Assembly: GCA_973895155.1 (NCBI GenBank)
Contig: OZ316891.1
Span: forward strand, 23,249,899 to 23,313,898
DNA from: Marsupella aquatica
Lineage: Eukaryota; Plantae; Marchantiophyta
Length of the DNA: 64,000 bases
Direction: 5' to 3'
The translations under genes and the position numbers were made by a program. Under the pieces are notes generated by a model. That model ran no database searches. It was not told the origin of the DNA and was given only the letters and a program-made list of their open reading frames with translations. Positions 1,354 through 29,044 of this stretch are shown here, in pieces. Every line of letters starts with the position of its first letter. Within the stretch, counting starts at the first letter, position 1.

Positions 1354-4300
1354 ATGGGGGAGTCGGTGCTGTCCACATTTTGGAGATACGCAGAGATGGG
1401 GGACTCAGGGCTGTCGACATCATTATCGATAGTGCTGGCCGTGGTGCTGGGCGGGGCTATTCTGCTGTGGGCGCAGCGATCGTACACTCTGTACTCATTG
1501 CGAAGGACCGATGCCGTGCTGCCCAAAGGCTCGCTGGGCTGGCCTATCGTTGGGGAATCATTCGACTTGCTCCGTGATCCAAAAGAATTTGCTTATTCTC
1601 GCGTCAGCAGGTAATTAATCTCTTATTCATGAATTGAACAGTCATGGTCTTGAATTGGCTTCTGCAGGTAGATCTCTTGTTCATGTAATGATTTTGGCTT
1701 GGCGCCTGCTCAATGATGTCCCATCATTATCATTATGGATCTCTCCTTGCCTAAAATGGTACGTGGGCACTTAGACAAGGGCAAGCTAGCTAGCAACTCA
1801 ATCATTCCTGCAATATGTCCCTTCGGCATCTTGCTTTGTGGCTTGTCATCTCGCTTTCTAGCTTGTCACTCACTCTCTCCCAGTCGGGAGAAATGCGTCC
1901 AGTTCACTAGCGAAAGTGAAGGAAGAAATTTTGGTGGGCAATGTCCCTATGTAGGAGGATGCATGTCCCCCGTTCAAAGACTAGTCTGACATATTTAAGT
2001 GGACTAGTCTGAAATATCTAAGCGCCACGGCTTCGAATGGTCAACAGCTCGGGTTGATGTCAGACTATTGGGGGGCAGCGATTCAATTGCAAATTACAAA
2101 GGAACTGGTAGCAAGTGGGGATGTTTAGAACATCTTCAGCACTTGGCTGAAAGTTGTGACTTGATGAATGCAGGTATGGAAATACGTTTAAAACGAACGT
2201 ATTTCTACGGCCAACGATATGTGGAACAACTCCGGATTTCGTCAAATTCGTCAATACGAACCCTCACCTCTTCAAACGGGCATACCCCGAAAGCTTCAAG
2301 CGAAGCATTGGACCCGAGACGTTTATGCTCCAGGAGGGTCCACGGCATATGTCTGTCAAGAAGTTGATCCTGAAATCTGTTGGTCCAGAAGGTCTCCGGG
2401 ATCAGGTCCATAGTTTTGAGAGCATTCTTCTCGAACACATGGCCTCGTGGGTGCGCGCTGGGACTGTTGTTGCACGTGGTGCAGTGCAAAAAGTGGGCCG
2501 TTCATTTTCAATCCTTACTAGAGCTTTCTTTCTTTAATCACTCTGTTCAATTCATTTTCGTTATATATTCTTCAGCGCATTCGTTTTCTTTTTCGAGTGC
2601 TTAGTACTTCTGTGCGATTTCTCTTCTTGTTCAATTCGTCTGCGGTATTCTTCAAATTAACTCTCCCGTCTTAATTTTATTCTCTTAAGATTCTTGAAAT
2701 TTAACTTCGGCACTGATGTGTCGTTTATGTCAACTGGCAGCTTACGTGGGATGCTGCCAACTGGGTCCTATTCGGAGATAGGAACAGTAGTAGCTCACCA
2801 CAAGGAAGGAAGAATTTGGAAGACTTTAATAAGGCCTCGCGGACATTGACAGCAATGCCAGTGAATCTTCCAGGAACGACGTTTAGCACAGGCATGAAGG
2901 TACGAAAACTGTCGGATGCTTGGCCAGCAGTTTGGACTTGGAATTGAATCCTGCCGGAGGCTAAGTTTGGACTTGAAGTTGAGATCTTGCCCGAGGCTCT
3001 TGAACACTGCTCGGCCAACTGAAGGCTAAGTCAGATACAGGTAGATAGATTTCAACAACGAAGACTTTGTCAAATCTGAAATCATTCCCGGAGTATTCGA
3101 AAGCGAGGTCGAGAATGATAATTTTGGACGGGAACGAATCTGTGCATTTGTGTTGTCCTCAACACCTCATTTGATTGATTGGTTGTTGTCTTCATCAGGC
3201 ACGGGCAAATTTGGTAGCATACTTCCAAACTCTGATTGAGTCGACGAAGGGCCAGAAGACTTTCGAGGGCGTTTTCTTCGGAGCTCTACTGGCAGCTCGG
3301 GATGACCCTGAAGGGCTAGAAGAGCTGAAGCATCTCGATGATTTCACGCTTGCCGAGAACATGTTTTTGATAAACTTCGCTGCTTCTGACACTACCACGA
3401 CGACTCTTGTATGGATCCTTAAGTATCTGATTGACTATCCGGAGGTCTTTCGCCGTTGCCAGGTACGGAGCATGCTTTGCTTCTCGGTTTGAATCTGGCA
3501 TGGCCTTTCGGATATCTAGAGGTCTGGAGCTTGAAATGGCAGTAGAATATTTGAACGTCATAAATGGTATTTTGTTGAAATATTATAGCACAATGTCGTT
3601 CTCAGCTTTTATCTCTTCTATTCTTCTCAGATCTTCTACAATACTAACCCTCATACTATGTGAGCAGGCTGAGCACCAACAGATTCTCAAAAACAAGGAC
3701 CCTTCCGTAGAAGGGCCCAGGCTTACTTGGGACGATATGAGAAAAATGGTTTACACTCGTAAGGTAACATGCATGATTATCCCTGGACAACCAAACAAAG
3801 TTGATTCCCTAGTGTACTGAAAATATAATGAACACTAGTCTAATATGAAGTCATAAACGAAGTGGATTGCCATTGGTCGAATATGAAGCTATTTAGAAAC
3901 CGGGTCCATGCTTGCGGGTGTTAGAAGTTATAAACGAAGTGGATTGCCATTATACTGGGCTTTGGTCGAATATGAAGCTATCTAGAGACCGGGTCCATGC
4001 TTGCGCATGGTAGGCAGGTAAATTCCGCTACAATCCTACATAGAATTAGATGCATAGTTGACCAGAACTCTAGAAAGTTCAAGCGATTGGCATACTTAAA
4101 TAATTACTTCTGAACTACCGGATGCAGTTCTTCAACGAAGTCCACAGAACCACTACACTCCTCCCTGTTCTTTTTAAGGAGGCAACCGAAGACGTTAAGT
4201 TTGAGGGTGAGTGATTTGAGCTTGAAGGTGACTGATCCTACTATTGCAAGCTACGCGTGTTGTTCTTGAATGGGATTAATTGCTAATGCATAGCGTTTGA

Positions 4301-5830
4301 GTTCCCACGCACCCAGCCAGCAAAATTTGTCAGCTTCATGCATATCTAGGTTCGGATTCAATGTAGGTACGTTCAGATTAATCAAGCTCTAAAGGCCCTT
4401 GCCAGCACACGCTTCTCAAGAAATATAAGCTGATTCTTCGACAAAAACATGTAGTAGCTCTATGAGCGAGTCATGAAATTATACGTTCGAGAAGAAACTC
4501 GTGCCACGTTCACATATTAAGATCATAAAAGTCTATTGATTCATGCAGGTCATCTAATACCAAAGGGCTGGAGCGTGACCCCGTTGACTAATTTCATTCA
4601 CACGGATCCTGGCAATTATCCCGATGTTAGTTTCAACCCCGATCGGTTCGATGTGAGTACTGTACTACTACCTTCGTCCTCAGTCAGGTTTTGATTGAAA
4701 GATATGATGTTACTGACAACTAAACGATCACAGATTTAATTTGTTTTCCTCAATGAGTTGGTGTACCTGACCGGCCTGAAGACTTTCACTCAGTAGAATT
4801 GATCGACCTCTTTCGATTTGGGAAACTTCTGCAGGTGACTCCGAAACCATACAGTTACATGCCATTCAGTTCTGGGCCTCATATTTGTCCGGGGATTGAA
4901 ATGGCCAAGCTGATTTCGTGCATCTGCGTTCATCATCTCACTACGACTTACATGTAAGTACCCATATACTTGACCTTAATTTGACAGAGTTTGGTACAGC
5001 TAGTCCGTGCATTTGCCTTTGGAATGGAGCCTCTTATCCAGCCCAGTCTGAAGAATTCGAGCGAAGGGAGTCGACAGACTTGCCGAATGACATCTAGAAC
5101 TTGAGATTGATTTGCATCCATCCATGTCCTCTAACCTTTCTTGTGACCTTAGTTTGTATTTTCATTAAAGGTTATGCGACACAAGCCCCTCACAAAGCTG
5201 GCTCCAAACCTGGCTCGGGATTCCCTGATTTAAATCTTTGTGTTCGTGTCAGGATCTAGTCCCCAGCATATGTTTCTCAATATTCACTTGCCTGCTTACT
5301 CTAGGGGGGCATGGCCTGTGAACCCTTGGGGACTATAGCTAGCCCTCAAAGAAATGAGGAACCTAACTCAGGATACTCTCTACCAATGAGACTGCACAAC
5401 ATGTCTGTCTTTTGAATTGAATGACGAGCCTGAATGCTCATTCTTTGAATGGCAATAGAATGATAACAAAAATCAACTTGCATGATCCATTTTGATGTAC
5501 CATACATTAGATTCTCAATTCTGCTCTCCATACGCATACATTTGGTGGGGCCCTAGAGTTAGAGTCTAGAGGTTTCACTCTAGAAGCCTAGACCCAACTC
5601 TAGCTTGACTTCTGTTTGCTAATTAGTAGTAATATGTGAAAAACCCTTGCAACTTACCACCCAAGTATAAATTCCATGGTTTCAATTTTGACATTATTAA
5701 GTGTTCTTGGCTCGATTTATTGTGCAGGCATGAGAGAGCTGAACCTGATAAGGGTATAATGTATGAAACCCTTACCCCCAAGGTAAAAGGAGGATACCCA
5801 ATCAAATTGAGTCCTAGGAGACAGGTGTGA
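1354..5830 (+). CDS. Cytochrome P450, CYP85 clan (CYP707A/ABA 8'-hydroxylase-like, divergent); 9 exons, about 499 aa
   Basis: GT-AG exons 1354-1610, 2174-2492, 2741-2899, 3199-3462, 3668-3763, 4128-4206, 4549-4652, 4835-4953, 5728-5830 join in frame (1500 nt). Motifs: N-terminal membrane anchor, LPKGSLGWPIVGE, RYGNTFKT, PVNLPGT, I-helix FAASDTT, ExxR (EVHR), IPKGW, FNPDRF, heme motif FSSGPHICPG, HHLTTTY. Confidence 0.93.
3853..4006. repeat. Tandem duplication (about 65-77 bp unit) in CYP intron 5
   Basis: ataaacgaagtggattgccatt...ggtcgaatatgaagctat.taga.accgggtccatgcttgcg occurs twice. Confidence 0.8.
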
Positions 5831-6284
5831 TAGCGCAGAAGCCTGTTTTAGTTATGCACACTCTCGGTATATTACCACATTTTGATGTGTGATTACCGAC
5901 ACTGAACTAAATGTACCCATGTCAAACTAAATGTTGTTCCTAATGGCTATAATCTCCCGCAAAAAGTGTCTGGGATTTTCTCTATATAGACATGAATAGT
6001 CCTTTCCTAAAAATGATTTAGCAAGTGAGTTGACAAGTGCATTGTCAAGTTCCGCCTCATGACGTAAACTACATATACGGTGCTTTACATTCCAAGGGAT
6101 CTCATTGCTGTTGAGGTCCAACACACTATGTGTCAACTGTGACTTCCAAATTTTTGCTGCAAATCTCTTGCTAAGTTGATCATAAGTAATCTCATTTTTT
6201 GCCTTGTCTCTCTTCATGTGCAAAAGAGACCACTTTGGAGAGTTGAGAAGAAGATAACATCGAATGTCACTTGCATGTGATAGT

Positions 6285-6579
6285 CTCGGGGGTCTCACTA
6301 TATGGGGACCTCCCCATTGCCTGCGACGTTTTTAGGCCTTAGACCCCCTAAAATGTAAGAAAAAAAATTATTTTTTAACCCCTATAAAGTTGGAATATTC
6401 TTGGAATATTCTAAAAATTGGATTGAAAAGACGCTACTATTCTTATAAGTCTCAAAATTGAATTTAAAAGACCCTATTGTTCTTCTACAAAAATTCTTAA
6501 GTCTTTCCTTAGAACCAATAAAATGACCCTATCCTTTGTCGCACATGATATGCCATTTTTGTGGAAGTGAACCCCCGAG
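6285..6579. mobile_element. MITE, CTCGGGGG-TIR family, 8-bp TSD
   Basis: Starts ctcgggggtctcact, ends agtgaacccccgag; flanks gtgatagt/gtgataat (1 mismatch); close inverted copy at 41958-42253. Confidence 0.9.
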
Positions 6580-7189
6580 GTGATAATTTCTCAAGACATG
6601 GCCAAAGAATTGCTAGAAGAAAATTATCTCCATGATTGGCATGCGTGTAGGGCACTGGAAATAATCCGGTCATGTCTGGGTTGGCAAATGCCTTAAAGGG
6701 GGAGTCATCCACAATGAGGGTGTTGGTTTCATCATATAGATCTCCAAATGCATTCCATACCACCTGAAAATCCTTCAGTAGCACATTTGCCTTTCCGTTT
6801 GTAATGTCACATCTTTGAATGTCTGTGTCAAAAGCTTCCACGTGTGTGAATACAAACTGGAGTTTTGACCTCTCCTCATCAGTGAACATCATGTTCAACA
6901 TTTTTATTGTTCGCGGTATCCCAGCACATGTCCAACTTGCAACGTCAAATCTGTCAAAAACCAACTTTAGAAACTCATGGAGCCCTGGTCGTTCTGTATA
7001 CATGCGACTAATATCATTTTTTCTATCCCAATGCACTCCACTTGAGGTGACAATATTCCTGGATGTGCCCTTGCTTTGGAATTCAATAGAATCCCAAAGT
7101 ATTTTATTAAGGTCCAAAATCAGCAACTTCCGCTTGACGGGACCAGGTCTCGATTCTGCAAGTGCACCAAACACCATTCTCAGAGAAAA

Positions 7190-7496
7190 CTTGGGGGCCT
7201 CAATCCAAGGGGTGTCCCATATCACGCTCGAAGTTTTGGGGGAATAAACACCCTAAAAGTTAAGTCAATAAAATTTTTTTTAGGAATTGTTTTACCCCTA
7301 ACTTAATGGAATATTCCAAGAATATTCCCATATTTGATTTTAAAAAACCCTATGATTCTTATCATTCTGAAAATTGGATTAAAATAACCCTAATGTTTTT
7401 CAACAAAAATTTAAAAGTATTTCACTAAACCCAATAAAAAAACCCTATACTTATTCGCGCGTGATGGGTTGGAAGAAAAGAAGTGAGGACCCCGGG
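7190..7496. mobile_element. MITE, diverged member of the same family
   Basis: cttgggggcctca...tgaggaccccggg; perfect TSD agagaaaa; internal ggaatattccaagaatattcc shared with the family. Confidence 0.8.
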
Positions 7497-7635
7497 AGAG
7501 AAAAGACCAAAAGTGAACTTTGGATTAGGATTGTCTCAGTCCAAAAATACAAGACAATGGCTGACAAAAAAGAAAATTAACCTACTTACCGTTTTTAGAA
7601 GCCTCACAATCTATAGACGTATATGGAGACTTTAA

Positions 7636-7963
7636 CTCGGGGGGGTCACTTCCACGGAAGTGACACATCACGTGCGACAAAGTATAGGCCCATTTAAATG
7701 GGTGTGGCGGAAGACTTCCAAAGTTTGGTGGAAGAACACATAGGGCATGTTTTATTGATTGGTCGACTTTAAAGAACACATAGGCCTATTTAATTGCAAA
7801 AAATACTTTCTATAAAGTTTTTAGGGGTTTTTTAATAAAAAATGACAAAATTTTAAGAAAGAAAGGGCTTTGCAAAAAAATATTTTTCACTTTAAAGTTA
7901 GGGGGGTCAAACCCTAAAACGTCGCACGCGATGTATGACCCTCCATATAGTGACCCCCCCGAG
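7636..7963. mobile_element. MITE, CTCGGGGG-TIR family
   Basis: ctcgggggggtcact...agtgacccccccgag; perfect TSD gactttaa; related to 53631-53875. Confidence 0.92.
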
Positions 7964-8045
7964 GACTTTAATTGGTGAGCGCAGTCTATGAGACCGAGAA
8001 GTATTTTAGATTGATGTGAATAAATAGAAAGTCAAAGGCTGAATT

Positions 8046-11000
8046 TCATTCCGAAATAAGAGATCCGTATTCATCAATAATCATGTCAGCACCAAGCTCC
8101 TGTTGGATTTTAAAATTGACATTTGAAGTACTTTGTTCTACCCAATAAGGTGAAGTCCAAATAGGAGTTATCAACCCCAATTCTCCCCTCTTATACTCCT
8201 CCTTATTGAGAATTGAAGGAGCAGCATCCAATGATATTTCTTGGCCTCAATTTGATCCACTTTTCCACACGTAACATCGTGCGTCGCGTTCCAATGACCT
8301 CCATCTAGTTGATCCAACTCTATTTCCTTTCTTTTTTTAGAGCGGAAGGACAATAGGACTCCCCGAGTGTGTACGAACAAACACCAATTTGTCATCAAAA
8401 GCTGAAAAGAGTGTGTCAAGACAAGTTGAAGCACCTGCCTGGTTGTCAGCAGCCGTTGATGCATTTCCTCCTGGATTGATGGGAATGTCAGGCAATCTGC
8501 CAGTCTCCCCCAGAGTCAATTCTTTAGTTTCAGCTTCATTTGAATCTCCAAGCCTCGTTGCGCCTTCATTGATCAGATTGGTTGAAGAAAGATGATCAAA
8601 CGTATCAACCCTTGCTCCGTCCAGTTGCTCCATCTGTCGTCCCGGCGTTGTTGGATTGGGATCATCCTTGTCCAAGTTATCATCAACTTGAACTTCATTG
8701 GGCCCCAAAGGGATGTCATCTAAACGAGATGAACGGTTTGGTGCAAGTCCAATATCATCATCTACATCGTAAGGCTCACCTTGACCAACACGATCATCCA
8801 AATTCTTGACATATGCCTCCTCTGATGCCTCTACGCCTTTAGCCACTTTGTCAGCAACATCTTCAGACTCAGAACCATCAGATTCAACAGCAATAGCTAC
8901 AGCCGCAACAATGGTAGCCCATTGTTGAGAATTTTCAGCAAGTGATTCACAATGGGCTTTAAGTGAGGGAACTCTCTCGCAAAGGTAGGAAGCAAAAGCT
9001 TCCACAAAATGCCTCTCGGAGTGAGAGTCACAATAAACAAAGCATTCCCTATCGCAAAAAAATGATGTCTTCATGACTTGGCCACCGGAGAAAAAATCTA
9101 GAACCAAATCTCCCGGTTCTAACAAGGATTCAATAATCCTTCAAATCATCCGCATGGGTTTGGCATGAGGATTAACCCACCCTCCGCGACTGCCAACTAT
9201 CTCAAATCGAGGGGCCATATTCATAATCTTGACGGCCTCTTTCGGGTCCAAAACCACTTTTAGGTCGTCGTTTTGTGTCCCCTCATCTGATTCCTTAGCC
9301 TTCCCCTTTCCCTTGTCAATCCTGCATACTTCGTAATCAACATCCTTTGAAGTATACAAGAATTTTGGCTTTGGATAGTTGGGCTTGAAAACTTCATTCC
9401 AATTGACGTCTTCATCTCGAGAAATCCCCGCAAAGATAACTTCTTCAATCCCCCCACCCCAACATGAGTCATGAGGGTGCAGTTGATCATCTCGAGAATA
9501 ACTCCCATACTCAATGTGAATGGTCAAAGCTTTCTCTTGTCCCAATTTACGAAGGGCACCATGGACATTCAATGCAAGTTGTCCAGGATGAACTGTTATC
9601 GTCACAACAATCATGGGATTTTGTGGAAGCTCCACAATATATTCAAAGAGAACAAGAATCTCTGCTTCAGTCCATTGTTTTTGCGGAAGCCGGCTAAAAT
9701 CAACAATGGCAAGAGGGCAGGTCAAAGGAGCTTCTTGCAATGACTCTGGATCAATGGTCTTCATGAGATTGTCGCTAAAAATGTAACCCATGGTAGGGTC
9801 CGAGAACGTGATCCTTCGCCAAATTTCTGGCAGTATATATCATCTAGGCGGAATGCCAATGCCGTCGGCAAGATTGCGCTCTCCCGCGTATGATTTGGCT
9901 TTAAAAGGTTGGCAAGATAGACCTCGCCAGCGGCTCTTTGACACCTACTGAACTCTAAATCAATTGCTAGCGTAGGAAGAACCTCAACTACTTTCCCCCA
10001 ATTAGTATTTGCCAGGAAATTCACTGCATCCTTGGTGCAATAGTAGTCTTCAATAAGGGATTTCAGTTTCCGCACGATCTTCACATCTTTGGCCAACTCC
10101 TCTATAGATGGCATGTCTGACTTATTAGAGGCATCTTTCTTTAGCAATACCTTTCTTGACTTCACCCGCGTTAGTATTCTTGTGATGTCTCGTTGTGAGA
10201 TCAACTCACCATCAAAACAACGAAACATGGCAACAGTAATTGCTTTTTCAGACTTCTCATTTCCTTCTACCCCAGCTCCATTGGGAAGTTTCCCATCCAA
10301 CCACAACTGGCATACCAAACTCCATAACTCAAAAAGAGCATTGTCCGCAAACAGTTACCAGTAAACATTTCGACAATCTTTCCTTCCCATGGTCATTCTT
10401 GCAAGAGCCAACCAATCCTACAATTGCAAAGGAAAGTCTGTTAGTTCTCCATAACTCAATTGTTTGAAAGCCTCAGGTGCGAACTGAGACCATCCTAGTC
10501 CAACACAGATTTAGACAGTATCAGTGGAAATATTCTATTGAATGTGCATGATTTAGTTTGGACTGGGACCATCCCAGTCTAGAACAAAACTAGACGGTAT
10601 CAATGGAAAAATAATCTATTGAATGTGTATGAATCCATTTGGACTGGGACCATCCCAATCCAACGCAAAACTAGGCGATATCAGTGGAAATATTCTACTG
10701 AATGTGCATGAATCCATTTGGATTGGGACCATCACAGTCCAACACAAAACTAGACGATATTAGTGGAAATAGTCTATTGAATGTGCATGAATCCATTTGG
10801 ACTGGGACCATCCCAATCCAACACAAAACTAGGCGATATTAGTGGAAATATTCTACTGAATGTGCATGAATCTACGGTATTGTACCCATCAAGCAGTAAC
10901 ACTTCATACCTGAAATTTTTGATTGTCTTGAGCCTTTTTTGTTGTCCCCATGTTTTGGCTGGCCAGGTCTTCCACATTCCACAAATTCTCGCCTAGCATG

Positions 11001-12605
11001 AACGACTGTATTTTTGAAGCATGACTAAAACACCATCGTGCTATTGATCGCATTAGATTGCATTGAATGCTCAACTAATATTGATGATGGTGTTCGATGA
11101 GATAATATTCTTGACTTTCAAAATTCCAGCTTTTTTGCCAATGTTGTTAGCTTGGCATCCTTGTTTGCCCATTCTTGAATCCATCCGGCTGCTCTGGCCG
11201 AATGTTGACCGCTAATGGCAAGGAATTGAACCTCGCCCTTTTTCACGGCTGCTACAAAGTCCCTCCTATCTGATTCCGTGTTGTCATACTGCATTAGGTT
11301 TCTATGTTTTGCAGTGTAAGGAATCAAGTCTGCTATGTGTGGTTCATGCCCCGGATTTCTTATCATGGAATTGGCCACATCCTTTACATGGTCTGCATTC
11401 AACATTCTATAACAGAGTTTTGCCAACGTAGGGAAAATACTCTCTACGGGAATAGAAAATATCGAATTGATCCCAAACGTATAATATTGCTCCATTTGTT
11501 GCAGTACCTCACTACCTTCTAAGACCTTCTTCTCCTCAGGAGCGTCCAACTGCTCGTCCACATCTTGTGAATGCACTGTTAGGTTTTCTGTAGTGTCATC
11601 CATGATGGCACTGTCAATTTTCTGTTTCTTCTTCTGTCTTGGCCTCTTTTCACTTGCACTCGGCTTCCCAACCGGACGTTTCTTCTCAATTGGCTTCTCA
11701 ACTTGGCTTCTTGTACTCGGCTTCTCAATTGGCTTCTCAACTGGCTTCTCAACTCGGCTTCTCAACTGGAAGTTTCTTCTCAACCGGAGGTTTCCTTTGG
11801 CTTTGTTTTTGTTTTCCCACTGCTCTTTGAGAGGTTGCTGTTGTAGTTCCCGCGGTCTCTGTTGTAGGTTCTGGAGCTTTCTCTGGCACTTGCTCGGGCA
11901 CAGGGTTTGTATTCACCGCTGGAAGCTTCTTGTCTTGGACAAAGATTCTATCCATTGCTTTGCTTTGACTAAATCAAACTTGGGAGCAAATGCAACATCC
12001 TTATCAATTAAAACACCAGGCTCCTCCGACTCCAACGATAACAATCCAGCTTTCTCAAGTAAATTGCTTAACATCCACGTAGTTGCAAAAGAAAAATTGC
12101 CTTGGTGCTTCATCATGTTGAGTTTCAAATATTGAAACCCATACATAATGTTGACTGGAAGCATACCAGTTACCCCGGCGACCAACTTCTTTGTGTCATA
12201 GGTCTTTGGGAAAAATCCCATTGACAAAACGCTCAATTCCCCACTTGCGTGCCATTCAACATTGAATTCAAAGGAGTATGCCTTTGACAGAAGGTTAACT
12301 TTAACCCAACAAGACCTATCGTGCATCTCTAGAATGACCAAATTCATCCCTCTCCCTCCAATGCCAACAGAGACCACAGGTCCGCAAACAAAAGTCAGGC
12401 TATCATTTTCTCTGCACTTTAAGGTCAAAACAGGTTCAATCGTGCTTGATGGCACTTAATTATTAAGCGGGGTTCTTGAGAACTCAAGCCCCCATCGAAA
12501 GCGTGGGGATCTCTCATCTAGTAAGAATCCGTCTAGGCAGTGGGTCGGTGCAATCGCAGGTTTGAAACCAACAAGATCGCTCCCTGCATCATAAACGTCA
12601 TCCAT
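8046..12605 (-). pseudogene. ParB/Srx-like plus N4/N6 DNA-methyltransferase-like fusion gene (copy A), frameshifted
   Basis: ORF pieces 11118-11783 (DHVKDVANSM...FLAISGQHSARAA, ParB-like), 9761-10318, 9141-9791 and 8337-9125 (NPHAKPMRMI*RIIESLLEPGDLVLDFFSGG, matching motif X/I of beta-class MTases), acidic tail; VEKP repeats near 11700. Confidence 0.72.
10485..10870. repeat. About 79-bp tandem repeat (about 5 units) in a probable intron of gene A, units carrying palindrome TTGGACTGGGA-CCA-TCCCAGTCCAA
   Basis: Equivalent positions at 10520, 10599, 10680, 10759, 10838. Confidence 0.9.
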
Positions 12606-12642
12606 GTTAGACTTAAAATGTTTAAAACATTTGAATAACTCT

Positions 12643-12840
12643 TGTTGGATTAGGATGGTCCTAGTCCAACTTGAGATGGTTTTAGACTTGCTCCTACAAT
12701 CGGGGTTCAATCTCCTGGATGGATTAGGATCATCCGAGTCCAACTTTGGATTGGGATGGTCCAAGTCCAACTTATCCGAGTCCAAGTTTGGATTGGGATG
12801 GTCCGAGTCCAACTTTGGACCCGGATGGTCCCAGTCCTCT
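12643..12840. repeat. Short cluster of the element-A palindromic unit
   Basis: ttggattgggatggtccgagtccaa variants just upstream of gene A. Confidence 0.85.
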
Positions 12841-14039
12841 AAGACTTAGGGAGGATAGGTGATGGATACTTACTAGGGATTCGTGATTGAAATTGTCTGG
12901 AGTCTTTGAGTACCAGTTCTACACTGTTGCTCATAAAGGAGAGGTCAAACTCCTCTGTTTCTTCCACGTAGGACTTCACAAGGACGCGATTTGCTTCCAT
13001 CTTTCTAACACATGGCAGCATGACATGTGGCATCTTAGCAAGCATCCGATCTAGGGCAAAAAAAAGAATGGAGGTGGAGGCGGAAGGCGGAGGCAGGCGG
13101 AGGGGTGGAGGCGGAGAGAGAGCGGAGAGAGAGCAGAGAGCAGAGAGAGAGCAGAGAGCGAGAGGAGAGCGAGAGAGCGAGGAGGAGAGCGAGAGAGCAA
13201 GGAGTCTCGGAGTGAGAGAATGAGAATGAGGTCCTGGCTGGACCTCTCCGTCCCTTTACCCCCTCCTGCCTCACCCCGGCCTGCGTACGGCCGGTTGCCT
13301 CCTTCTCCTGCATACGGCCTGCTCCTGCGTACGGCCCGTTGCCCTCACCTTGCATACGGACCTCCTTTCTTGATGTTCTGCCTACCTAACAGCCTTGCAT
13401 GGTAGTCCCCGTGCAATTAGGCTCATGAAGATAAGGAGTGTCCGCAAGCTAGGGTGAACGCCTACTCAACCCTTATCTTCATGCAATTTCCGGTTGAGCC
13501 GACTCAAGCGAAGGGTATAATTTGGGAGACGCCCATTTTGGAGCTCATTCTTGTTCTAGTTTCCCAAATCTAAGCTCCATGTAATCCGGAGTTTCTCTTA
13601 ATGTGTTATGTATTGAGCCACTTACCTTCAATGGGTCAGCTTAGCCAGCTTCTTGACTTTTGGAGTCCTCTCAGTTTATCTTTTACAGACATGTGTGGTT
13701 TAGGGTTCAGTTTGTTTTTTACTCCCAAGATTTAGTGGCATATAGCTTGTATTTCAAAGGTTTTGGGAAGTTTTTACCAATCTACAAACAACAATGTATA
13801 CCCCTTGGATGTGATATTCATCTTCTACCAGATCTTAATACTAAGGTGAGTATAAGGTTAATGCATTCAAATATAAGGTTCCATTATTTCATGAAACTGT
13901 ATGCAGACATTAGGGTCTGCCTTAAGACCACGCAAACTTTAGGCTACACCATATAGGGAGATCCGTAAAATACGGAGTCTTCATAAATTTGGATTTTTCT
14001 TAGCTTAAGATGTTTGAAGTTTATCTCCCATTACATCAT

Positions 14040-15150
14040 GGATTGGTCTAGGATGGTCCTAGTCCAAGTTTGGATTCAGATGGTCCTAGTCCAAGTTTGG
14101 ATTAGGATCATCCGAGTCCAACTTTGCATTGGGATCATCCGAGTCCAACTTTGGATTGGGATCATCCGAGTCCAAGTTTGAACTTGGATGGTCCAAGTCC
14201 TAGTTTGGATTGGGATGGTCCGAGTCCAACTTTGGATTAGGATGGTCCGAGTCCAAGTTTGGATTCTCGTTTGGATTGGGATCATCTGAGTCCAAGTTTG
14301 AACTTGGATGGTCCGAGTCCAAGTTTGGATTGGGATGGTCCGAGTCCAAGTTTGGACTTGGATGGTCCCAATCCAAGTTTGGATTGAGATGGCCCAAGTC
14401 CTAGTTCGGATTGGGTTGACCCAAGTCCTAGTTTGGATTGGGATGGCCCGAGTCCTAGTTTGGATTGGGTTGGCCCGAGTCCTAGTTTGGATTGGAATGG
14501 TCCGAGTCCTAGTTTGGATTGGGATGGTCCAATTCCAACTTTGGACTGGGATGGTCCCAGTCCAAATCCAAAATTGAAGGATCGTAGTCCAAATCCAGAC
14601 TCAAAGGATTGCAATCCAAATCCGAACTTGGATGGTCCTGGTCCAAATCCGGACTCGGATGGTCCCAGTCCAAATCCAGACTTGGAGGATCGTAGTCCAA
14701 ATCCAGACTCAGAGGATTGCAGTCCAAATCCGGACTTGGATGGTCCCAGTCCAAATCCGGACTCGGATGGTCCCAGTCCAAATCCGGACTCGGATGGTCC
14801 TAGTCCAAATCCAGAATCGAAGGATCGTAGTCCAAATCCAGAATCGAAGGATTGCAGTCCAAATCCGGACTTGGATGGTCCCGGTCCAAATCCGGACTTG
14901 GATGGTCCTAGTCCAAATCTAGAATCGGAGGATCGTAGTCCAAATCCAGACTCGGAGGATTGTAGTCCAAATCCGGACTTGGATGGTCCCGTTCCAAATC
15001 CGGACTCGGATGGTCCCAGTCCAAATCCAGAATCGAAGGATCGTAGTCCAAATCCAGACCCGGAGGATTGCAGTCCAAATCCGGACTTGGATGGTCCCGG
15101 TCCAAATCCGGACTCGGATGGTCCTAGTCCAAATCCTGAATTGGAGGATA
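14040..15150. repeat. 27-bp palindromic minisatellite (about 40 units, two subtypes, higher-order structure in second half)
   Basis: Units such as ttggattgggatggtccgagtccaagt, then ccggactcggatggtcccagtccaaat; copy with perfect arms ttggactgggatggtcccagtccaa at 14541-14565. Confidence 0.95.
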
Positions 15151-15222
15151 GTAGTCTGAATCAAAATTTGCATGAGTTTGGTTTTAATCCATTTTTTCAG
15201 TGTGCAGGATAATAGGAAAAGG

Positions 15223-17106
15223 ATGTCTCAAAGGTTTTCTAGGGGCGATGATGTGACCTTGACAATGGATGGTTACAACGTTGGAAATGGGACAGTTCAA
15301 AAGACAGATCCACGAGAGAGTGTTCAAAATATTGTGCTGGGAGAGAATCAAATTGGGGTCATCGAGAAGGCCTTTGGTGAGACCAGGAAGCTCCCTTTTC
15401 CAATGCCTAGGGCGGAAAATCTTCATGATGCCATTGACTCATGTGTCATTTGGGATATGTCATGTGCATATCGATCTACAAATAAGATTACTCAAAAACG
15501 CATCAGTATTGGTAGTTGTTCGACTCAAAAAGATAACAACATCCATAATGTTGCAAATGTAGAGGAGAATGCTCCGACCAACCTAAGGCCAGGCGATGAG
15601 GTTGAAATGTTTGGTGTTCGCCAAACAAGACTGTGAAACAAAATTTGCCTTGTCCTTTTGCTTCTTAGAGGAAAATTTGTTGCTCCCATCGATATCAACA
15701 TTCCATACTTTAATGTGGACGTCAACCACATCCCATAGAACCCAGGAGCCCTTTGCCTCTTCAATTGTTGCAGCTCCACCATGTGCGTAAGGTAAAGTCT
15801 TACTACCATGAATCACATCTGTGATTTTTACACTAACCCGAGACTCACCGAGTAATATGTTATGACATCTCTCCATTGGATCGATCTTGAAAACAACTCC
15901 AAAGGCCACACAATGGCCAGAGATCACGGACACTAAGTGTGACTATTTTCATCGGGAAAACTGGATGTCAGAGTTGGTTGAACTCTACACTGGTTTGGAT
16001 CAAACCAAAATGGTTGCCACTGGAACGATCACTGTCCCTCAAGTGACGACAGCAGTTGATGATAAAATTCTTGGTGATGACCATGTTGGGATTGCTGTGA
16101 AAGATGTCGTGGCAGCACAATACTTTCCCAACATCCACAAGGGAGTAGTGAGTTTGATTTGATGGCGGATTGATTCAACAAAACTAGTTGCAAATGGAAA
16201 AATTTTGTCAGACATTTTGGTGGAAGGTTCTGAGAGGATGGACTCAATGGATAGGGATGAACTCAATGCGGATGTAAGTGACAGAGGAGTACTGCGTTCA
16301 AGGCCGTACAATTTTAACAAGAGGAATCAAGTAGATCCGAATGAAAAGAAGAGGAGGTTGTTGGAAACCAAGGCAATTTCAAAAACAACAAAGGCGTCAA
16401 TTGATGACGTGAAAAGAGAAAATTGTTGCAAGCAAAAATGTTGTCTCATTATGCCAAGGGAACACATCGAAGATATTAGGATGGAATTTCATGGGATGTC
16501 AAGTGAGTCAAAAACGTTACACATTTTCAACCTCTTTCACTATAGAGAGGATGATGTTTGTGATAAGGGACACCATGTTCTTAAGGGTATGGTCGTATGC
16601 AGACATGCATTGCAATTATCCACGGTTTTAGCCACACCAAATATTATGATTACAAAAGGAGATATGTGGAGGGTTGCAAAATTGGGTTCCATGGCAATAC
16701 GGGCTTGATGAAAACAAGGGCAAATACTTTGCATGCACGAGCTTTGTTGGAGGTTTTTTTGACTTGAAATGCAGAGCCCATGCCTCATATGCCTTATGGA
16801 GGGGCACATGGGACAGACTCTATTGAGTACCGTCTTCCGGCGTGTTACAAGAAGCTAGAGATTCTGGAAGATGTGAGAACAAAGATGAAGGAAGAAGGGC
16901 TTCCTCCTGTCACAGAGAATACTCTCTACAAGATCTGGAGCAACTCATTTGCAAACTTCAGTTTTCATAAAGATGGTGCATTTGCCAAGTGTACTCTTTG
17001 TTGTGAATACAAAGACAGTTTGATGCGAGAAAGAAGGAAAAAAGAACGTGCTGAAATTGAAGAAAAGCGAGCGCAACATCTTCGTGAGCAAATGTCACAT
17101 AGATAT
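15223..17106 (+). pseudogene. Transposase gene of element A: three Tnp1/En-Spm-like (DUF8039-type) small domains, then the N-terminal part of a Sola/DUF7869-like transposase; resumes 21842-21888 then truncated
   Basis: Three repeats of VAxGxV...LG...V...W; then CCKQKCC, VVCRHA, HGN, FAKCTLC, HLREQMSHRY|VYYAHQ across the 4.7-kb insertion. Confidence 0.6.
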
Positions 17107-20100
17107 TGTGGTGCTTCCCATGGCTCCCCAAACCCAAGAAACCCCCCGCACAAGCCGATTCCCGCAGGTTTCGTGCTCGGCGAGGCCATTTCCGCGGTTT
17201 AGCGGCATGGGATGCTACTAACTTCCTACTACTACTATTAACATTTTACACACATATACTGGATAGATTCTTCATCAGGTCATGAGATATGCAGTTGGCC
17301 TAATCTAGACCTTCTCTTGTCTTTCCCTCCTGTTGGTCAGGTATATTTGGATTCTGCCGCCGGAATGATCCCCAATTGGTTTGGTTAAGCCACTAAGACC
17401 TCTCTCAGCTCGACACATCCAACTCTCACTCCCTTGCTTACTTCCCTTCTACTTGTTGGTGTGGGCACTCTTCACACAAGTTAATGCGACACACAAATAG
17501 CAAAATGACTCCTTCTGACTGAGTTATACCATGCACTTGCAATACAAATAGTACATCTCATACACAAACTCTGCGAACTAAGCCGTGAGGCCAACTCTAT
17601 TCAGTTCTTAGGTATGAGGAAACATGAATATACACAAGAGTCACTGTATAACTAACCAAGAGCTTCTCTTACTACTTGATCCCAGCCCTGCTGGTGCAAC
17701 TAAAAACTTGCTAAAGAAGAGGCCCTAAACTCCCCGTAGCCCAAGTACTTATCCTGGTCGTGGATCCGCCTGATTCCTTGCAGCGTAAGCCTAATCTACC
17801 TACTGTAATCTACCTGACTGTAATCTACCTATGTACAGCGAGGCAGGAGCACAAGTGTTGCCCTCACCCGTGGATCCAAAATCCCACTAATCTAAATGTC
17901 AGGGCCGTCTCCTGGTCCTGATCCTAAGTCCAAACTTGGAGATTAGCGCCCGCCCTGCTCACTCACGCCTCCTACCTCCACGTCCGCCTTCCCTAAAAGG
18001 GACGGCGCCCTTACACCGTCACGACACCGGTGGCTGGTTCTCAATGGACGCCCCCAACGCTTCCTCCGCAGCCACTATCATTGGTCCATCTTCTGACAGA
18101 TTACCTGCCCTTGACCGAGTCAACTCTTCATTGGCCTGACTGGGTCCACCCTTGGCTTCGGCCTCAGCATTGGTCACGGCCTCCGATACGACTACGGCCT
18201 CCCCGACATGTTCTAGTGGAGGATCCGGTACATCAACATCATTACTGGTTCTCCCGACCTCAGCCTTGCCATCTCCACTTCCTAGGACTGGTGGATCCAT
18301 CGCCGTGCCGATGCCGAAGATTGGTGTCGGGTTTATCTTCTCGGTCACAACGGCTTGAGAAGCCGTATAACTCCCAGACCTAGAAGGTTTCTGCTTCTTC
18401 TTCTTCCCTATTTCGACAGCCGGTTCCTTCCCTTTGCCACTTACCTTTGGCACCGGGGTGAGTGTTTCGGCTTGTCCTGCGGCCAATACTACCCTTGGTA
18501 ACTGGGTTCCCCCAATTGGAGTTGGATCTGATGAAGCCAAGCATTTAAATACTGCGGCTTGTGTCTTCAGCCGCTCCGTTTGGTTGTCGGCCCGCCGCTG
18601 TAGGTTCTCCATCTTCCTTGTGATTTCCTCCAACTCCTCATGGGTCTCGTCCAGGTCCTTGCACGCCTCCTCCAGCTCCTTGTTGGCTTCCTCCAATTCT
18701 TTCTTTAAGGTGGCCCTCTCCTCCTGGGTTGCTCTTAGCTCCTTGTCGAGCTCTGCTACAACCACAGACTCCATCTTATTCATCTTGGCATAAGTCTGGT
18801 CGAGCTGGTCGTCCTTTTCATGTAGGTGAGCCTTGAAGCTGGCCGTTAGGGATGCAAGCTCCTGCTACAGCGCAATAATCCCTTGATAGGATTTCCCTAA
18901 CTCTGCTTCCTTCTGCTCAAGGGCTCCACGGATATCTTTGAGCTCTCCTTTCAACGCCCTCTCCCTTCTCTGGTTCTTTGCCATTGCCCGATTGTTGGTT
19001 GCTAAGTGGGCCTCCTCTGCATCCCTTAGCTCTCGCTTCCATTTCTCTCTTTCTTTGACTGCGCCGGCCAACTCTCCTTGGGTCCAAGTCAGTTTATCTT
19101 TGATAATCTGATTGTCAGACTGAGCGGTATCCAACTGCCCATGCATGATGTTTAGCTCATGCCGCTTAATCCGTAGCTCATCTTGGGCTTTCTTGGCCAC
19201 CTGCAGGACTTCCACCTTGGCTTCCTTCTCCCTAAGCCGTCGGATGACCTCGTCCTTCTTGCTTCTCTCCAAAGCCACCGCTTCTTCTAATTGATGCTTT
19301 TCCAACATCTCCCTCTAGAAAAAGGGTCCCTGCTCCAACTCCTCCCCAAAGATGCTGAGTGCCAGGTCCCCACACATCTCCCCGTACTCCATGGCTCTAT
19401 CCTTAGCATAGGTGGAGTAACTAGAAGTCATCGGCATCAACCATCGCGGCCTCCGCTCCCAAGCCGCCTTGCGGATTTCTTCAATGGTGGCAAGAGGGTT
19501 GCTTCTTTTTTCGGCAAGCCGCCTGATGTCCTCCGGCCAATCTCCTCCTGGTAAATCATTCTCCTTAGCCAAGGCTGCTTTTTCTTCCTCCCTAAGTCGC
19601 TCCTGAAATTCTTGTGCCGTCTGCTTTATGCCGTCAAAGCTTGGGGGAGCAATCTCTGGTGGGGAGACTCGGGGCTACTCTGCTGGGTGGGGTCCCCTCA
19701 AACTACTCTTGGAAGCGTAGGGATAAATTGGCCACAGGTCCTTACTCCTTGAACATGATGATCCGACCCATAGCCAGAGTTATCATTGCTGTAGTCCTCC
19801 ACCGCCTCCTCCACTATTGGGACTCCCGGCTTCTCCCTTTGTTCCCCTGGTCCAGTCGTGAAAATGGCCTCTAGTTCCTCTGGTTTCTAGGCTGTCGTCT
19901 CCCTCTGCTCTGCGCGGGAAGGAGCCTTAGGCTGCTCTCCCTCTGATTCGGGGCTTGAGGCTCCCACATACATTCGCACTCCCGGCTTGTGTTCTGGCCT
20001 CCTGGTCTCCTTGGCTCCGGTAAAGGGATCTTCCTTTCTGAGTTGGCTTAGGCCGACCTCTGGGGCAGCGTCCTATATCGGTGCCGTTGCCAGAACCGTT

Positions 20101-21836
20101 GCCGTTGCCGGAACCGTTCTCTTTTCCTTCTCCAGCAATTTCAGCAGATTTTGCATGCCTGGTTGCTGCATCGGCAAGTCTTCTTTCCTTGTCCTAAACA
20201 CCTGCTCGATCGTCAGACTGTCAGGCTGGTTGGGCTTCTCTGGTGCCAGCCCTTGCTCCGGAACCTCCTCCGGTGCCCTTGCCAATAGGGGAAGTACTGG
20301 GGCAAAGATTTGACTTCTGGCATACTGGCACAACAGCGGCATGTGATAGCCAAGCCGGGACACGCTTCCTACGCCGATCACCTGTTGTTCCTCCTTCAAG
20401 ATCTTCTTCAGTTGGTTGAGGAGGTACCCGTTGTAATCCCGGCTTGGGTGTGGCCTTTTTGCTAGGTAGACCTGAGCCTTGCCGATCTCTGCCCTCGGCA
20501 AGTTACAGTGCATGGTGACCCGCAAGAAATCGATCATCTCTCCGATGTGCGGGTTGGTGCAAGTGTTCCGGAAGAAGCCATTCTTTGTTGATGGTCATGG
20601 GAACGACCAGAACTCCTTGTCAGGTAAGGTCTTCCTGGTATCAACCTTGGTCTTATTACCCATCGGCAAGCCAAACACCTCAGCAATCACCCGGGGAGTG
20701 AGATAGAAATCCTTCCCATACACCCTCGTGGAATTGGTCTCGGGTTCCCATGATCCCACGAATTCTAATAAGTCTAAGTCCGGCACCTCCGGCTTCAGCC
20801 ATGGTAATCTTACAAAGGCTTCCAAGCCGGATCCGGCCATGAAGCCTTGGTACTTCTTGGTCTGCATGGCCGTAAAACATGCATCCTCCTCCTGTGCAAA
20901 GTGTAATTGCACTTCCTCCGGTAGGGTTGCCGCCCAGCCTTTCCAGATGTCATCGTTTGTTGGAATGGCCTTGATGGGATCAACCTCTTCCTCTTTGGCG
21001 TCTCCCCTTGTCCTGCTCTGCTGCTCTATTGGCTTCCTAGGTACCGTCGATCTCGTTCTTTTTGCCGGGGTGGCCTCTTCGTTGTTGTTTCCTTTCCTCT
21101 TCATCTCGGCTGCCGTGGATGTTTCTCCTAGCAAGGTTGCCTTCGTCCACCCCCTTTGTGTTACCTTTCAACTCCCAGTGTAAGTCATTGCAGCGATTGA
21201 TGGCTTCCCGGATGCCGACGATTCTGTTTTCGCAAAACAGAAGGTCATCGAGCTGATTGGCAGTAGGAGTCCACAAGAACTCGGCCTTGATAAGTTCTCC
21301 TCCTAAGAAAGCCGTCTTCTGCAGTTCCCAGAGCCAAGCAAGCTCCTGCCGTTCTCAAGCTGCTCTCTCCAATTCTTTGTCCTCATAAGTCCTGACGTAC
21401 TCACCTGCCCGTTTGAACAGGCATCCCCAAAAATGTGCCGCTTGATTGACGTTGCTCATAGCCTCCTTGAGTCGATCGTTGGTATCTGTTCCCACCTCGA
21501 GTGCTTGCCTAAGCAACTGACAACATTTGTCCTCCCGTAGTCGTCTGCCCAGTTTGTTCTTGCAAATGAGCCACTATTCCTTGTGAGCGGTCCTTACCCC
21601 TCTCCTCCTCTGGTCTTCCCTCCCGTTGGTCACCCTTAGCCGCCGACGCTTAGCGCGCCCTAACCCTAATTGTGTTCTCTCCCCCAACGTCCTTACTTCC
21701 GGCCTCGGCCCGGGTTCCATAGTCACCCTTAATTGTTTATAATTTCCTTGTTTTTGTTCCTATACTAAGGTGTTTCCAGGGTACACTCTTGCTTTACCAT
21801 GTAAACCGGGCTAGTGATTCCTGGCTAGGCATCACA
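17107..21836. mobile_element. 4.73-kb TG...CA element with 5-bp TSD (solo-LTR-like)
   Basis: Starts TGTGGTGC, ends GCATCACA, flanked by GATAT/GATAT; removal restores the transposase frame; no gag/pol or terminal direct repeats seen. Confidence 0.85.
18019..21134 (-). pseudogene. Retroelement accessory ORF (Athila ORF1/Transposase_32-like N-terminus plus long coiled coil), broken by stops
   Basis: LLEFVGSW...VYGKDFYLTPRVIAEVFGLP; E/K/L-rich heptads in ORFs 18019-18783 and 18865-19308. Confidence 0.6.
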
Positions 21837-23606: not shown

Positions 23607-26600
23607 TCATTGAGAATCCTCTGATTCCAAATCATCTGAGGAATTACTAGGATCGCTACTCGACTCCCTATCAGTCTCCTTAGCCGAATTGTCAACATAC
23701 TGTGCTACAGTCCCAGCCTCATCATCTATGAACTGAGGGCAGTAAAGGGCTTTCCGAACACCCCTCACTAACCGCAGACCTTTCCCCTCCCAAGTCAAAA
23801 TGATGGGCGCTTCATCAACCTCCTTTGCAGTCTTTTCAGCATAGCATGGAAGCGCAAATCCCTTCTCCCGGGCCCTTCTCAGGGGTCACAAGAAAATGAT
23901 CCTCGATTTCTTTCCGAAGGCGGAATCTCTCCTCCGAAACCAATCCGAACGCCTATCACTGAAGAAATCACCAGAATTGGATCAATACTACACATCCAAA
24001 AATTCTCCAAACAAAAGAAAAACACCAAATAGGGAGTTCTACATCAAAGGCCAAGTGCTTTACTCCAGGTTGAATTTATCCTTCTCGTCTGAAGGTCCTC
24101 CCTGATCATCTCCTGGGATGGTGAACTCATCATCCAACCCTTCATCATTGGGATCATCATTTTTCGGGTCTACGGCCCCTTTCAACTTTTGGGCATGTCT
24201 ATCCAACACATTTGCCAAAGTTTTTTGCGCACACAGATGAAGAATGTCTCGATCTTCAACACCCACAACAAATCTCCCAGCGTATTCCCCAGCGGCAAAA
24301 GCACTTCCATCTCCAACAATCCAGTCAATGACAATGTCCTTTGGCAAAGTAAGGATCTCCATTACGGCTTGCATGAACCCAACTGACAATCTATTGGAAC
24401 CTGCAAAAGCCGCCTTGGGATTGGGATCAGTTTTTGGGTAGCAAACACTCAACATCGATTTATGGTGGGCATCCTCCGAGGAAGTCATTGGAACATATCC
24501 TGTATGTTTCGGGACTTTTGCCAAGAATTCCACCTTGCAAAAGACATCCATAATGAGAGTAACCACCTGAATTGAAAACGAGAATATGTAAGAAATGGGA
24601 ACTTTTGGTTAGCGAGCTCGCTAGCAAAAATTGCACGAAAATATTGAGGATATCTTACCTCAATGTCCATATCTGCCTGATACAAAGGAGATGAAAGCAA
24701 AATCGAATATTGCCGGACATGTTTAAATTTGTTCTTCTGCTCGACGGCAATTTTTTTTGTCTCATATGGTTATAGTCAGAGCTATGAAGAACTGCAACAT
24801 AACCATTGTTGGCAAGCATCGGACACATGACTCCAAAGAAATAATATGGTAATTTCTCACTCCAAACATTCCACTTTGGGACCTCCCGGTCTGTGACGCT
24901 CGTTCGATGACCAGTGGGAAGGAATATGAAACCCAAGTGAGCACCAATTCCAGCGTAATGTTTTAGGGTGTTCATTGATCATCACGGCGTTTGGGTGTTC
25001 GCTCGATTTGTTCATTCCAGACAACCACTGATCCGCATCGCCCATCCAGGGAGGTCTTACTTTCCTCTGGCTAATTGAGTTTGCAGTTTCCGTGAGATTG
25101 CTCTTTGCCAAGAAATGCCTCTCACCGTCCTTCTCAAGACCACACATTTGTGCTACTCCTTGCGCGACGCATGCTTCCTCCTCATCCGAGTCGGAGAGAA
25201 TTTGGACATTGCGCTTCCTCTTTAAATGCTTGATTGAACCCAGGTCCACAGCAGATTTTGTTGTGACCTCAACATCAGGAGACTTGGGTTCTTCTCCATC
25301 ATTCGCCCCACTCTTCAAACTCCCAGAGGCTGCAGCCTTTCTCTTCTCTGAAAAACATGTTAATGTCAGACAGGTGACTGAGACAAAATTACTCCGAATG
25401 AGGTATGAAAAAAAGAGGAGAAAAAGACTTACTTTGCTTCCCAGACAAGACTGATCCATCCTTGGACGGGTCCTTCACCGGCACCTTCCAAGGTCTCCTC
25501 GATCTACTCCGGTCGACAATGGCAGCTACACCAAGAACAACTTTCTCTATTGCCTCACATCCACCAGCCTCGGCTTCTGCAGGAGCTAATTTGGACTCTG
25601 TAATGTACGACTCTGGTATCAAGCCTTGATTTATCATATGAAATGTTGCCTTCTCTGCTGTGTCAAATGTCACTGTCCATTTGTCTGATTCTAAATACCA
25701 TGGACAGTGAAGGACTTCCCACTCACTCATCTTCCTTGGAGCCTCCACTCCCTCACATGGGTACATTGAGTACTCTCCATATTTAACGGAGGTTGGATCC
25801 TCTTTCACTCCTACTATCCAAGGCGAGAAGCAAGCAGGATAGGACCACCAATATGTTTTGTCAACAACTTCTTTATCCACAAAAAAATGATACGTATATC
25901 TCTTCGCCCTCCTCCGAAAAAGTGAGATGTCAATCTTCTCACCCAACTTTGGTGGCCAAATCTGTCTGAAAAAATGAGATTTCACTCTCGTTTGGAAATC
26001 TTCAAAGTCCTCCTCTATGTCAAGGATCAGCGATGGCTTTGTCTTCTTAGAGGAAGTAAGGATCCTTGCATCTGGAATAGTTGGGATCATCTCTGAAATA
26101 ATCTCAGACATGAGCGAAGAACAAATTGACTCAACCTGCTCCCATACAGCCCATCGATGAAGCCAAAGTTTTGTTTCGCTGTCCAAGAATTGACCAGGGT
26201 GGAAGTACTTCTTGCGAAGCTCAAGTCTGCATTGTACCTCGAGGAGTACACATCTGAGCTGCGGAGTCAACGACAAGACACCCATAAATAGCCTCGCACG
26301 ATTGAGACCACATGACACATTACCCCTTCCTTTATCGTCTGTTCGTTGGGCCTCCTTCCTCTCATGTTCGCAGTAGTTGTGCATCTCAACACACTTCTGG
26401 AAAAAGTCACCAAACTCAGGATTCAGGATAGGTCCAATCTTTGGCACCTTCACATTCCAATCTGCTAGTTGCTCCTTCATCATGTCTTTCACTGCCATGT
26501 CTTGCGTAGCTTTTGAAAGAAGTTCTCCTTGCGCTTCTTTCAACTGGAACTTCTTCAAATCTTCCGTCTGTGCTGCAATATTAGCAGCAGACAGAATGTA

Positions 26601-28768: not shown

Positions 28769-29044
28769 ATCAGGCCGTATCTTTCTTAATACCCCTCCGT
28801 TTCTCGAGTGTTTTATATCGATTTTACTCGCCTTGACCAGATCTTTCCAATGCTCTTTACAGATCCGGATTTGGTGATATATTGAAAGAGATATGGTCAT
28901 CGACCACCCGCGACATAGCTTTTATTTCCCTACTCTTAACGCCATGATTGCCCTTATTCTTGCCATCTTGCTAATTGTTATGCAATATCAATAGCTACTC
29001 CTTGCATACAGCAACCTACTTAATCAGATTACAAAATAAGGACC

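Follow-up and report, generated by a model that had tools for sequence, protein, structure and literature searches.

The stretch of DNA analysed here, called the window in the following, comprises 64,000 nucleotides of Marsupella aquatica (Marchantiophyta; assembly GCA_973895155.1, contig OZ316891.1, forward-strand positions 23,249,899 to 23,313,898) and holds, between about 5,860 and 17,106, a broken member of a multicopy DNA-transposon family, designated element A. It is a decayed representative of a plant transposon that exceeds 11 kb in length and is likely of the Sola type, in which a NIF-phosphatase-like gene and a long gene, gene A, both on the minus strand, are followed by an array of 27-bp repeats and by a divergently oriented transposase gene on the plus strand. 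Homologues of gene A are predicted from structural models to combine the N-terminal domain of ParB with the fold of beta-class N4-cytosine/N6-adenine methyltransferases, and a palindrome restricted to element A accompanies the gene. The gene A product might bind this palindrome as a dimer and control chromatin or transcription of its own transposon family, a proposal built on models and layout to which we give an even chance of being correct.

Matches to the palindrome were counted at up to 3, 4 (for the pairing statistics) or 6 mismatches. At up to 3 mismatches the window contains 25 matches and each of 100 shuffles none, so that the motif is real and occurs at the sites where the original prediction had placed it. 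At up to 6 mismatches 44 matches are found, all within 7,520-15,132, and the remaining DNA of the window is free of them; this confinement supports the view that gene A, the palindrome and the transposase behave as one repeated unit. One match is located at 7,520, one at 8,651, five in a 79-bp array, five at 12,645-12,839 and 32 at 14,043-15,132. The match at 8,651, which falls into the coding linker of gene A, had been overlooked before, and the other 43 of the 44 lie outside coding exons. A perfect copy is seen at 14,541 only, and the real consensus reads GGA(C/T)T-N-GGA-N3-TCC-N-A(G/A)TCC. Pairing between mirror positions was assessed on the 36 copies that have no more than 4 mismatches. 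It is seen in 32-35 of them for positions 3-5, 7 and 9-11 and in 15 for position 6/20 (the change being mostly C to T, which gives T:G), while position 8/18 varies and is complementary in 8 copies only. Selection for a hairpin was rejected on the basis of this last figure, and the freedom of a symmetric position fits better with a dyad bound by a dimer.

Gene A spans 12,605 to 8,046 on the minus strand and is interrupted by a GT..AG intron (10,909-10,418) that encloses the entire 79-bp array. The array is thus situated within the span of the gene, as had been claimed, but in an intron, and its interpretation as coding sequence was rejected. The homologue CAM6105388 of Calypogeia fissa is spliced at the same junction, between KFQ and DWQ. 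AISGQHS, PHAKP and PGDLVLDFFSGG are found in minus-strand frames of gene A, and the reading frames likewise bear out the predicted divergent transposase on the plus strand. Exon 2 encodes, in addition, a putative motif IV site (CPLAIVDFSR) and motif X/I (NPHAKP..DFFSGG), with the palindrome at 8,651 in its linker. A homologue search among 1.84 billion representatives retrieved 62 sequences for exon 1 and four for exon 2; 30 homologue clusters were looked up and yielded six named cargo homologues, whose sources are two liverworts, Riccia sorocarpa and Calypogeia fissa. The cargo loci are R1sor_008738, 008624, 016316 and 026958 in the former and CAM6104338 and CAM6105388 in the latter. Upstream of the ATG, the cluster at 12,645-12,839 is possibly contained in a 5' intron, to judge from a GT at 12,873 and an AG near 12,612. 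If the intron 12,873-12,612 were used, an upstream open reading frame (ORF) would stop one base before the ATG of gene A; the candidate 5' exon with this ORF shares the region 12,612-13,250 with a (GA)n tract.

AlphaFold models were built for two intact homologues, P0009 as the equivalent of exon 1 and P0003 as the equivalent of exon 2. The model of P0009 (predicted local distance difference test, pLDDT, of 82; 52 sequences) contains the ParB N-terminal fold, with Z 9.8 and a root-mean-square deviation (rmsd) of 2.2 Å over 95 residues to ParB of M. xanthus, a Z range of 7.9-9.8 to ParB, Noc and KorB, and top Foldseek rows that are all ParB/Noc (best E 7e-3). It was the fold that revealed this domain, which sequence searches of gene A against Pfam, NCBIfam, PHROGs and PDB did not detect. 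In the ESM Atlas the look-alike of the ParB-like domain is fungal DUF3723 (0.95, given without alignment or E-value), and the N-terminal domain of P0009 has weak PH-like matches alone (Z under 5). Canonical ParB proteins carry motifs of the GxRR/DGxHR type. In the gene A family the arginine-bearing motif of the ParB CTPases (ParABS) is missing: DGxHR occurs in none of the 62 homologues and SGQHS stands instead, in 30 of them, with close variants in seven and 25 unmatched by the pattern (fragments or another preceding residue). No ParA partner is present among the ORFs scanned.

The model of P0003 displays a permuted Rossmann fold, in which the strand of motif IV precedes motifs X and I, and resembles CcrM (Z 13.7, rmsd 4.0 Å, 189 residues), M.RsrI (Foldseek E 1.7e-5) and the bdelloid N4CMT (Z 12.1); its look-alikes in the ESM Atlas are mostly phage N6_N4 methylases. 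Equally, a profile match to M.RsrI (E 3.7e-7) reflects similarity in motifs X/I, and N6_N4_Mtase is the sole meaningful Pfam match for the pieces of gene A and its homologues. Motif I for binding of S-adenosylmethionine (SAM), of the general form DxFxGxG and present here as D[FL]FSGG, has been kept in all eight sequences (two from one cluster), whereas the catalytic motif IV, [DNS]PP[YFWH], searched anywhere in the sequence, is found in none of the eight. Both folds of the postulated ParB-methyltransferase gene are therefore recovered in the homologue models, but the missing PPY motif makes the methyltransferase label doubtful. The loss of canonical catalytic residues from both folds suggests a binding or scaffolding role for protein A.

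In such a role, the protein would dimerise through its ParB domain and the dimer would recognise the family-specific palindrome in introns and intergenic DNA of the element, with the helical domain as a putative DNA reader and the methyltransferase-fold domain possibly binding SAM without methyl transfer. As an outcome, the own family might be kept expressed against host silencing, similar to the action of VANC, or be regulated in the manner of KorB. A more far-reaching version would place a fusion of ParB and methyltransferase, derived from bacteria, on liverwort-type transposons with two or more mutually unrelated families of transposase. The protein of each family would load at a parS-like palindrome of its own, spread along the element and either block silencing by 5-methylcytosine (5mC) or write N4-methylcytosine (4mC) or N6-methyladenine (6mA) via a non-canonical active site. 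This version is tentative and, in our estimate, rather doubtful.

On the other hand, the palindrome could be the binding site of the transposase itself, with gene A as a passenger or as a helper with another role; the subterminal repeats of TnpA provide a parallel. The part of the transposase present in the window matches residues 1-652 of the 1,300-residue homologue P0079 at 41-54% identity and stops some 18 residues short of the first catalytic Asp, where a very high-copy repeat starts at 17,107. DUF7869 (E 2.8e-42), like the acidic motifs at 668, 862 and 899, is known from P0079 only, as the catalytic core lies outside the copy in the window; the original assignment to a Sola/DUF7869-like transposon is likely by way of the homologue and not of the catalytic part of this copy. 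We take DUF7869 to be a marker of Sola transposases, which makes this an assignment by domain. The largest palindrome array is located directly upstream of the transposase gene, and the N-terminal repeated domains of the protein have a weak TNP1/En/Spm match (E 0.029), as might be expected of a palindrome-binding transposase. Such binding is nevertheless unlikely as the explanation of the motif, which does not occur in the first 1.6 kb from the left end, where a different motif sits, and which clusters in introns of cargo genes; moreover, a second element of the window, element B, unites an unrelated transposase with the same cargo design and the same pattern of scattered palindromes.

Element B and a third element, C, appear from their sequences to use the same design as element A and to come from a lineage without detectable sequence similarity to it. 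Gene A had been described as distantly similar to genes B and C, a statement that goes too far: blastp gave E>1, hmmsearch was negative and hhalign of the homologue alignments reached a best probability of 1.3%, over motif I only. The motifs differ as well, with SGQHS and DFFSGG in gene A versus DGNHR and DWxxxxxS in genes B and C. The transposases of B and C are, as foreseen, unrelated to that of element A, represented by P0079 (blastp E>=0.85). Identity amounts to 31% over 823 amino acids between genes B and C and to 52% over 110 amino acids between their transposases, and this relatedness of both cargo and transposase looks like co-descent inside each lineage. The B and C transposases have no Pfam family at E<=10 and no PDB match, and their labelling as Mutator was not confirmed; the D..D..H spacing presumably resembles that of Mutator-like elements. 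Gene B has a ParB-like DGNHR region with a weak PHROG match (E 0.025), gene C a weak DNA methyltransferase match (E 8.9e-5) and a decayed ParB region. The palindrome of element B, TAGCGCC-N-GGCGCTA, has nine perfect copies and 13 relaxed matches, every one of the latter within 33,764-43,591, and is absent from element A; its copies are scattered in introns and between genes, and we take it to recall, loosely, the KorB operator. In element C (24,060-29,914), GCTTGC-N2-TGCAAGC is seen three times near 27,235-27,520, and a 26-bp array is located at 28,559-28,693.

As A shares no detectable similarity with B and C, the common design is either ancient or has arisen twice; a very old common origin and an independent capture of prokaryotic ParB-methyltransferase fusions would fit the sequences equally. 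Of the idea of a portable module, the recurrence of the design beside unrelated transposases is supported, but not the capture or exchange of one and the same module. The narrower historical claim that one module of ParB, methyltransferase and palindrome was swapped between transposon superfamilies in identifiable transfers, which is compatible with any mechanism, could appeal to the identical domain order and divergent layout, yet is improbable given that the similarity between A and B/C is not significant, that cargo and transposases of B and C are related to each other and that the palindromes differ.

Quite improbable is that gene A encodes an active N4-cytosine/N6-adenine methyltransferase with a non-canonical motif, whose mark at the palindrome would shield the element from 5mC silencing or license transposition. 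Homologues that are only 30-46% identical share a near-invariant motif X (NPxxKP) and motif I (DFFSGG), and DF[SGT]R, with the Asp at the end of the strand inferred as motif IV, has been kept in six of eight sequences; the closest folds include bdelloid N4CMT and PvuII, and working N4-cytosine methylases are reported in liverworts (bioRxiv 2021.02.12.428880). The PPY loop is, however, lacking throughout, two Riccia proteins as well as genes B and C present yet other residues at this site, motif I falls one residue short of its M.RsrI counterpart, and the Pfam N6_N4_Mtase score of 24.1-25.9 stays below the family cut-off of 26.7.

That gene A and the transposase belong to one unit is indicated by contig depth. 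Six sequencing runs from four studies contain the stretch, five of which were examined. In run X2 the depth amounts to 50-51 for host contigs (51 for the P450 gene), 364-431 for gene A (five contigs), 455 for the transposase and 344-346 for the phosphatase-like gene (two contigs). Shared-variant depth in run X1 is 4,178 for gene A versus 3,965 and 4,104 for the transposase, and in run X3 16,279 versus 18,908. Over three runs the depths of gene A and transposase co-vary and their ratio to host DNA shifts several-fold; none of 24 bins in 5,868-17,075 drops to host level in X1 or X2, although bins of 467 bp could hide a narrow junction. The evidence for co-amplification is good but indirect. It is very unlikely that gene A and its palindromes form a separate repeat which adjoins the transposase by chance in a nest of insertions, even with no contig joining the two, as the matching depths in three runs argue against chance nesting and the divergent layout recurs in elements B and C.

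Several points weigh against the recognition of its own palindrome by protein A. The proposed mechanism derives from layout, sequence and models. The folds are predicted on P0003 and P0009, which are 30-40% identical to gene A; the methyltransferase model of P0003 has a mean pLDDT of 56 from ten sequences, its motif IV strand is a putative assignment, and the helical domain has no convincing fold match (best Z 5.2, rmsd 6.1), nor one in a viral library. The transposase could bind the palindrome through its own N-terminal repeats, and the 36-44 palindrome copies are mostly derived from tandem arrays and not independent. Equally, depth does not give the true number of copies, and the source organism itself may be represented in runs X1 and X2. 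Gene A and transposase are not joined by any of the contigs listed, and none of the 66 cargo homologues (62 plus 4) could be placed beside a transposase. Pattern searches for linked loci returned 41 metagenome contigs by methyltransferase ORF and 155 by ParB alignment, 40 viral contigs with a transposase homologue and 55 GTDB genomes by ParB alignment, with none confirmed in any of these sets. Finally, the window spans only the left end of element A, hence neither a pair of terminal inverted repeats nor a target-site duplication (TSD) can be seen.

The left end is marked by the depth step at about 5,852-5,893, where depth rises from host to repeat level between the bins 5,811-5,851 and 5,893-5,933; with a loose-end consensus at 5,867/5,868, it was mapped to about 5,852-5,867, and its motif occurs once in the window. 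Related ends, which belong to a higher-copy repeat, read GAG after AT-rich flanks with a flank consensus finishing in AAT. The TSD of Sola1 is described as 4-bp AT-rich AWWT (PMC3845634). The present copy of element A is dead, with eight stops in the aligned parts of gene A plus one frameshift, and two stops and a frameshift in the transposase; both frameshifts are missing from high-depth contigs of other copies in the sequencing runs, which points to better preserved copies. The segment 15,612-15,924 of the transposase is inverted when compared with contigs from the runs X1 and X2 or with another transposase fragment at 63,448-64,000. This second fragment, on the minus strand, is 93% identical and without inversion, and its upstream region lies beyond the window. 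The CpG ratio of 0.52-0.57 in element A versus 0.83 in the host gene is consistent with past methylation.

Table 1. Coordinates of the features of element A in the window (a dot denotes features without strand)
Feature	Position	Strand	Description
Left end of element A	5852..5900	+	approximate; subterminal motif common to a higher-copy related repeat
NIF/FCP1-like HAD phosphatase-like gene	5927..8045	-	Pfam NIF E 1.6e-14; 5' end approximate
Single palindrome	7520..7544	.	in intron of the phosphatase-like gene
Gene A, exon 2	8046..10417	-	predicted helical domain, beta-class methyltransferase-fold domain, disordered linker, small C-terminal domain; 4 stops, 1 frameshift
Gene A, intron	10418..10909	-	79-bp array at 10,483-10,872, 4.9 units, 5 palindromes; spliced homologue P0030
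Gene A, exon 1	10910..12605	-	predicted beta-rich domain at the N terminus, then basic linker and ParB/Srx N-domain containing AISGQHS; aligned part with 4 stops; 62 homologues
Cluster of 5 palindromes	12645..12839	.	upstream of the ATG of gene A
27-bp array (54/81/108-bp higher-order)	14043..15156	.	between the divergent genes; 32 palindromes
Transposase, 5' half	15223..17106	+	repeated domains at the N terminus, Cys-rich region; inversion of 15,612-15,924

In the phosphatase-like gene, DLNK replaces the usual DxDx motif, and splice sites delimit an intron at 7,589-7,156; an acceptor at 7,253 was rejected as this position lies inside a miniature inverted-repeat transposable element (MITE). 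Three MITEs with 8-bp TSDs interrupt the gene, and contigs of other copies skip or lack them. The MITE family has CTCGGGGG-type ends and 8-bp TSDs and is represented at 6,285-6,579, 7,190-7,496, 7,636-7,963, 41,958-42,253 and about 53,626-53,875; besides the three copies in the phosphatase-like gene, one truncates the transposase of element B. A very high-copy repeat that starts with TG and resembles a long terminal repeat is present in two 96%-identical copies, of which one (17,107-20,507) cuts the transposase of element A and the other (29,915-33,328) that of element C. To the left of element A, intron-bearing land-plant DNA carries a P450-like host gene at about 1,360-4,960, recognised by motifs read directly, after which the nested repeats follow; its typical last exon was not found before the left end of element A. 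The P450 gene is flanked by a short high-copy repeat in inverted orientation (5,541-5,606 and 249-314). Two decayed transposase genes at 46,199-48,890 and 54,634-57,395 are, by their motifs, presumably CACTA-like.

The escape of plant transposons from silencing by methylation is known in detail only for few systems, VANC being one example. If the more far-reaching version applied, a prokaryote-style centromere or operator device would have been reused as a eukaryotic anti-silencing tool; if protein A only autoregulates, element A would still offer an operator system of bacterial type that is unusual for a transposon of eukaryotes. Recognisable, predicted bacterial folds stand beside an explicit family-specific candidate site, which makes the proposal directly testable, in plants for which 4mC is known. 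A design common to two unrelated transposase families within one window points to a widespread, undescribed accessory system, which might also become a source of sequence-specific epigenome-editing tools. In the literature searched, to which subscription journals, Repbase reports and supplements (notably that of PMC4738411) did not belong, no description of a ParB-methyltransferase-like cargo on a plant DNA transposon was found.

Element A can be compared with several known systems. A likeness to Sola is suggested, via the homologue P0079, by DUF7869 and the acidic motifs, as well as by related ends with GAG after AT-rich flanks, but element A exceeds 11 kb and carries two accessory genes. DUF3723, the look-alike of the ParB-like domain, is a conserved accessory gene of the fungal Starships, large mobile elements that employ, in contrast to element A, tyrosine recombinases and for which the available description includes no methyltransferase fold (bioRxiv 2021.12.13.472469). 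With the beta-class methyltransferases CcrM, M.RsrI, M.MboII, M.PvuII, bdelloid N4CMT and Marchantia DN4MT1, the gene A homologue shares the permuted fold and motif order (Z 11.9-13.7); unlike them, gene A lacks [DNS]PP[YFW], for which TSPPY is reported in DN4MT1 (bioRxiv 2021.02.12.428880), is fused to ParB-N and helical domains and is multicopy on a transposon and not a domesticated host gene. The ParB/Noc/KorB clamps and the phage ParB-methyltransferase fusions share with gene A the ParB N-domain fold and many palindromic sites on the same element, whereas gene A differs from ParB, Noc and KorB by SGQHS in place of the GxRR/DGxHR-type motif and by the lack of a ParA partner. Phage methyltransferases of ParB-terminase loci have been described as sources of other eukaryotic methyltransferase clades, and the ParB-linked eukaryotic clades treated in the available text of that work are algal, chytrid or haptophyte, with none on a land-plant DNA transposon (PMC4738411).

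The closest analogue in layout is VANC of the Arabidopsis VANDAL elements, which are Mutator-like. VANC binds motifs that are specific to its family and have been amplified to tandem repeats within the introns and between the genes of its own element, and it strips methylation (PMC5735166). Element A likewise unites an accessory gene with a short motif of its own, arrayed in tandem in introns, intergenic DNA and other non-coding parts, and in both cases the motif differs between families. The VANC motifs, at 8-9 bp, are non-palindromic, unlike the palindrome of element A, and binding and demethylation have been demonstrated for VANC while the activity of gene A is predicted only. Element A in turn has predicted ParB and methyltransferase folds and a DUF7869-type transposase, and its likeness to VANC is one of motif arrangement.

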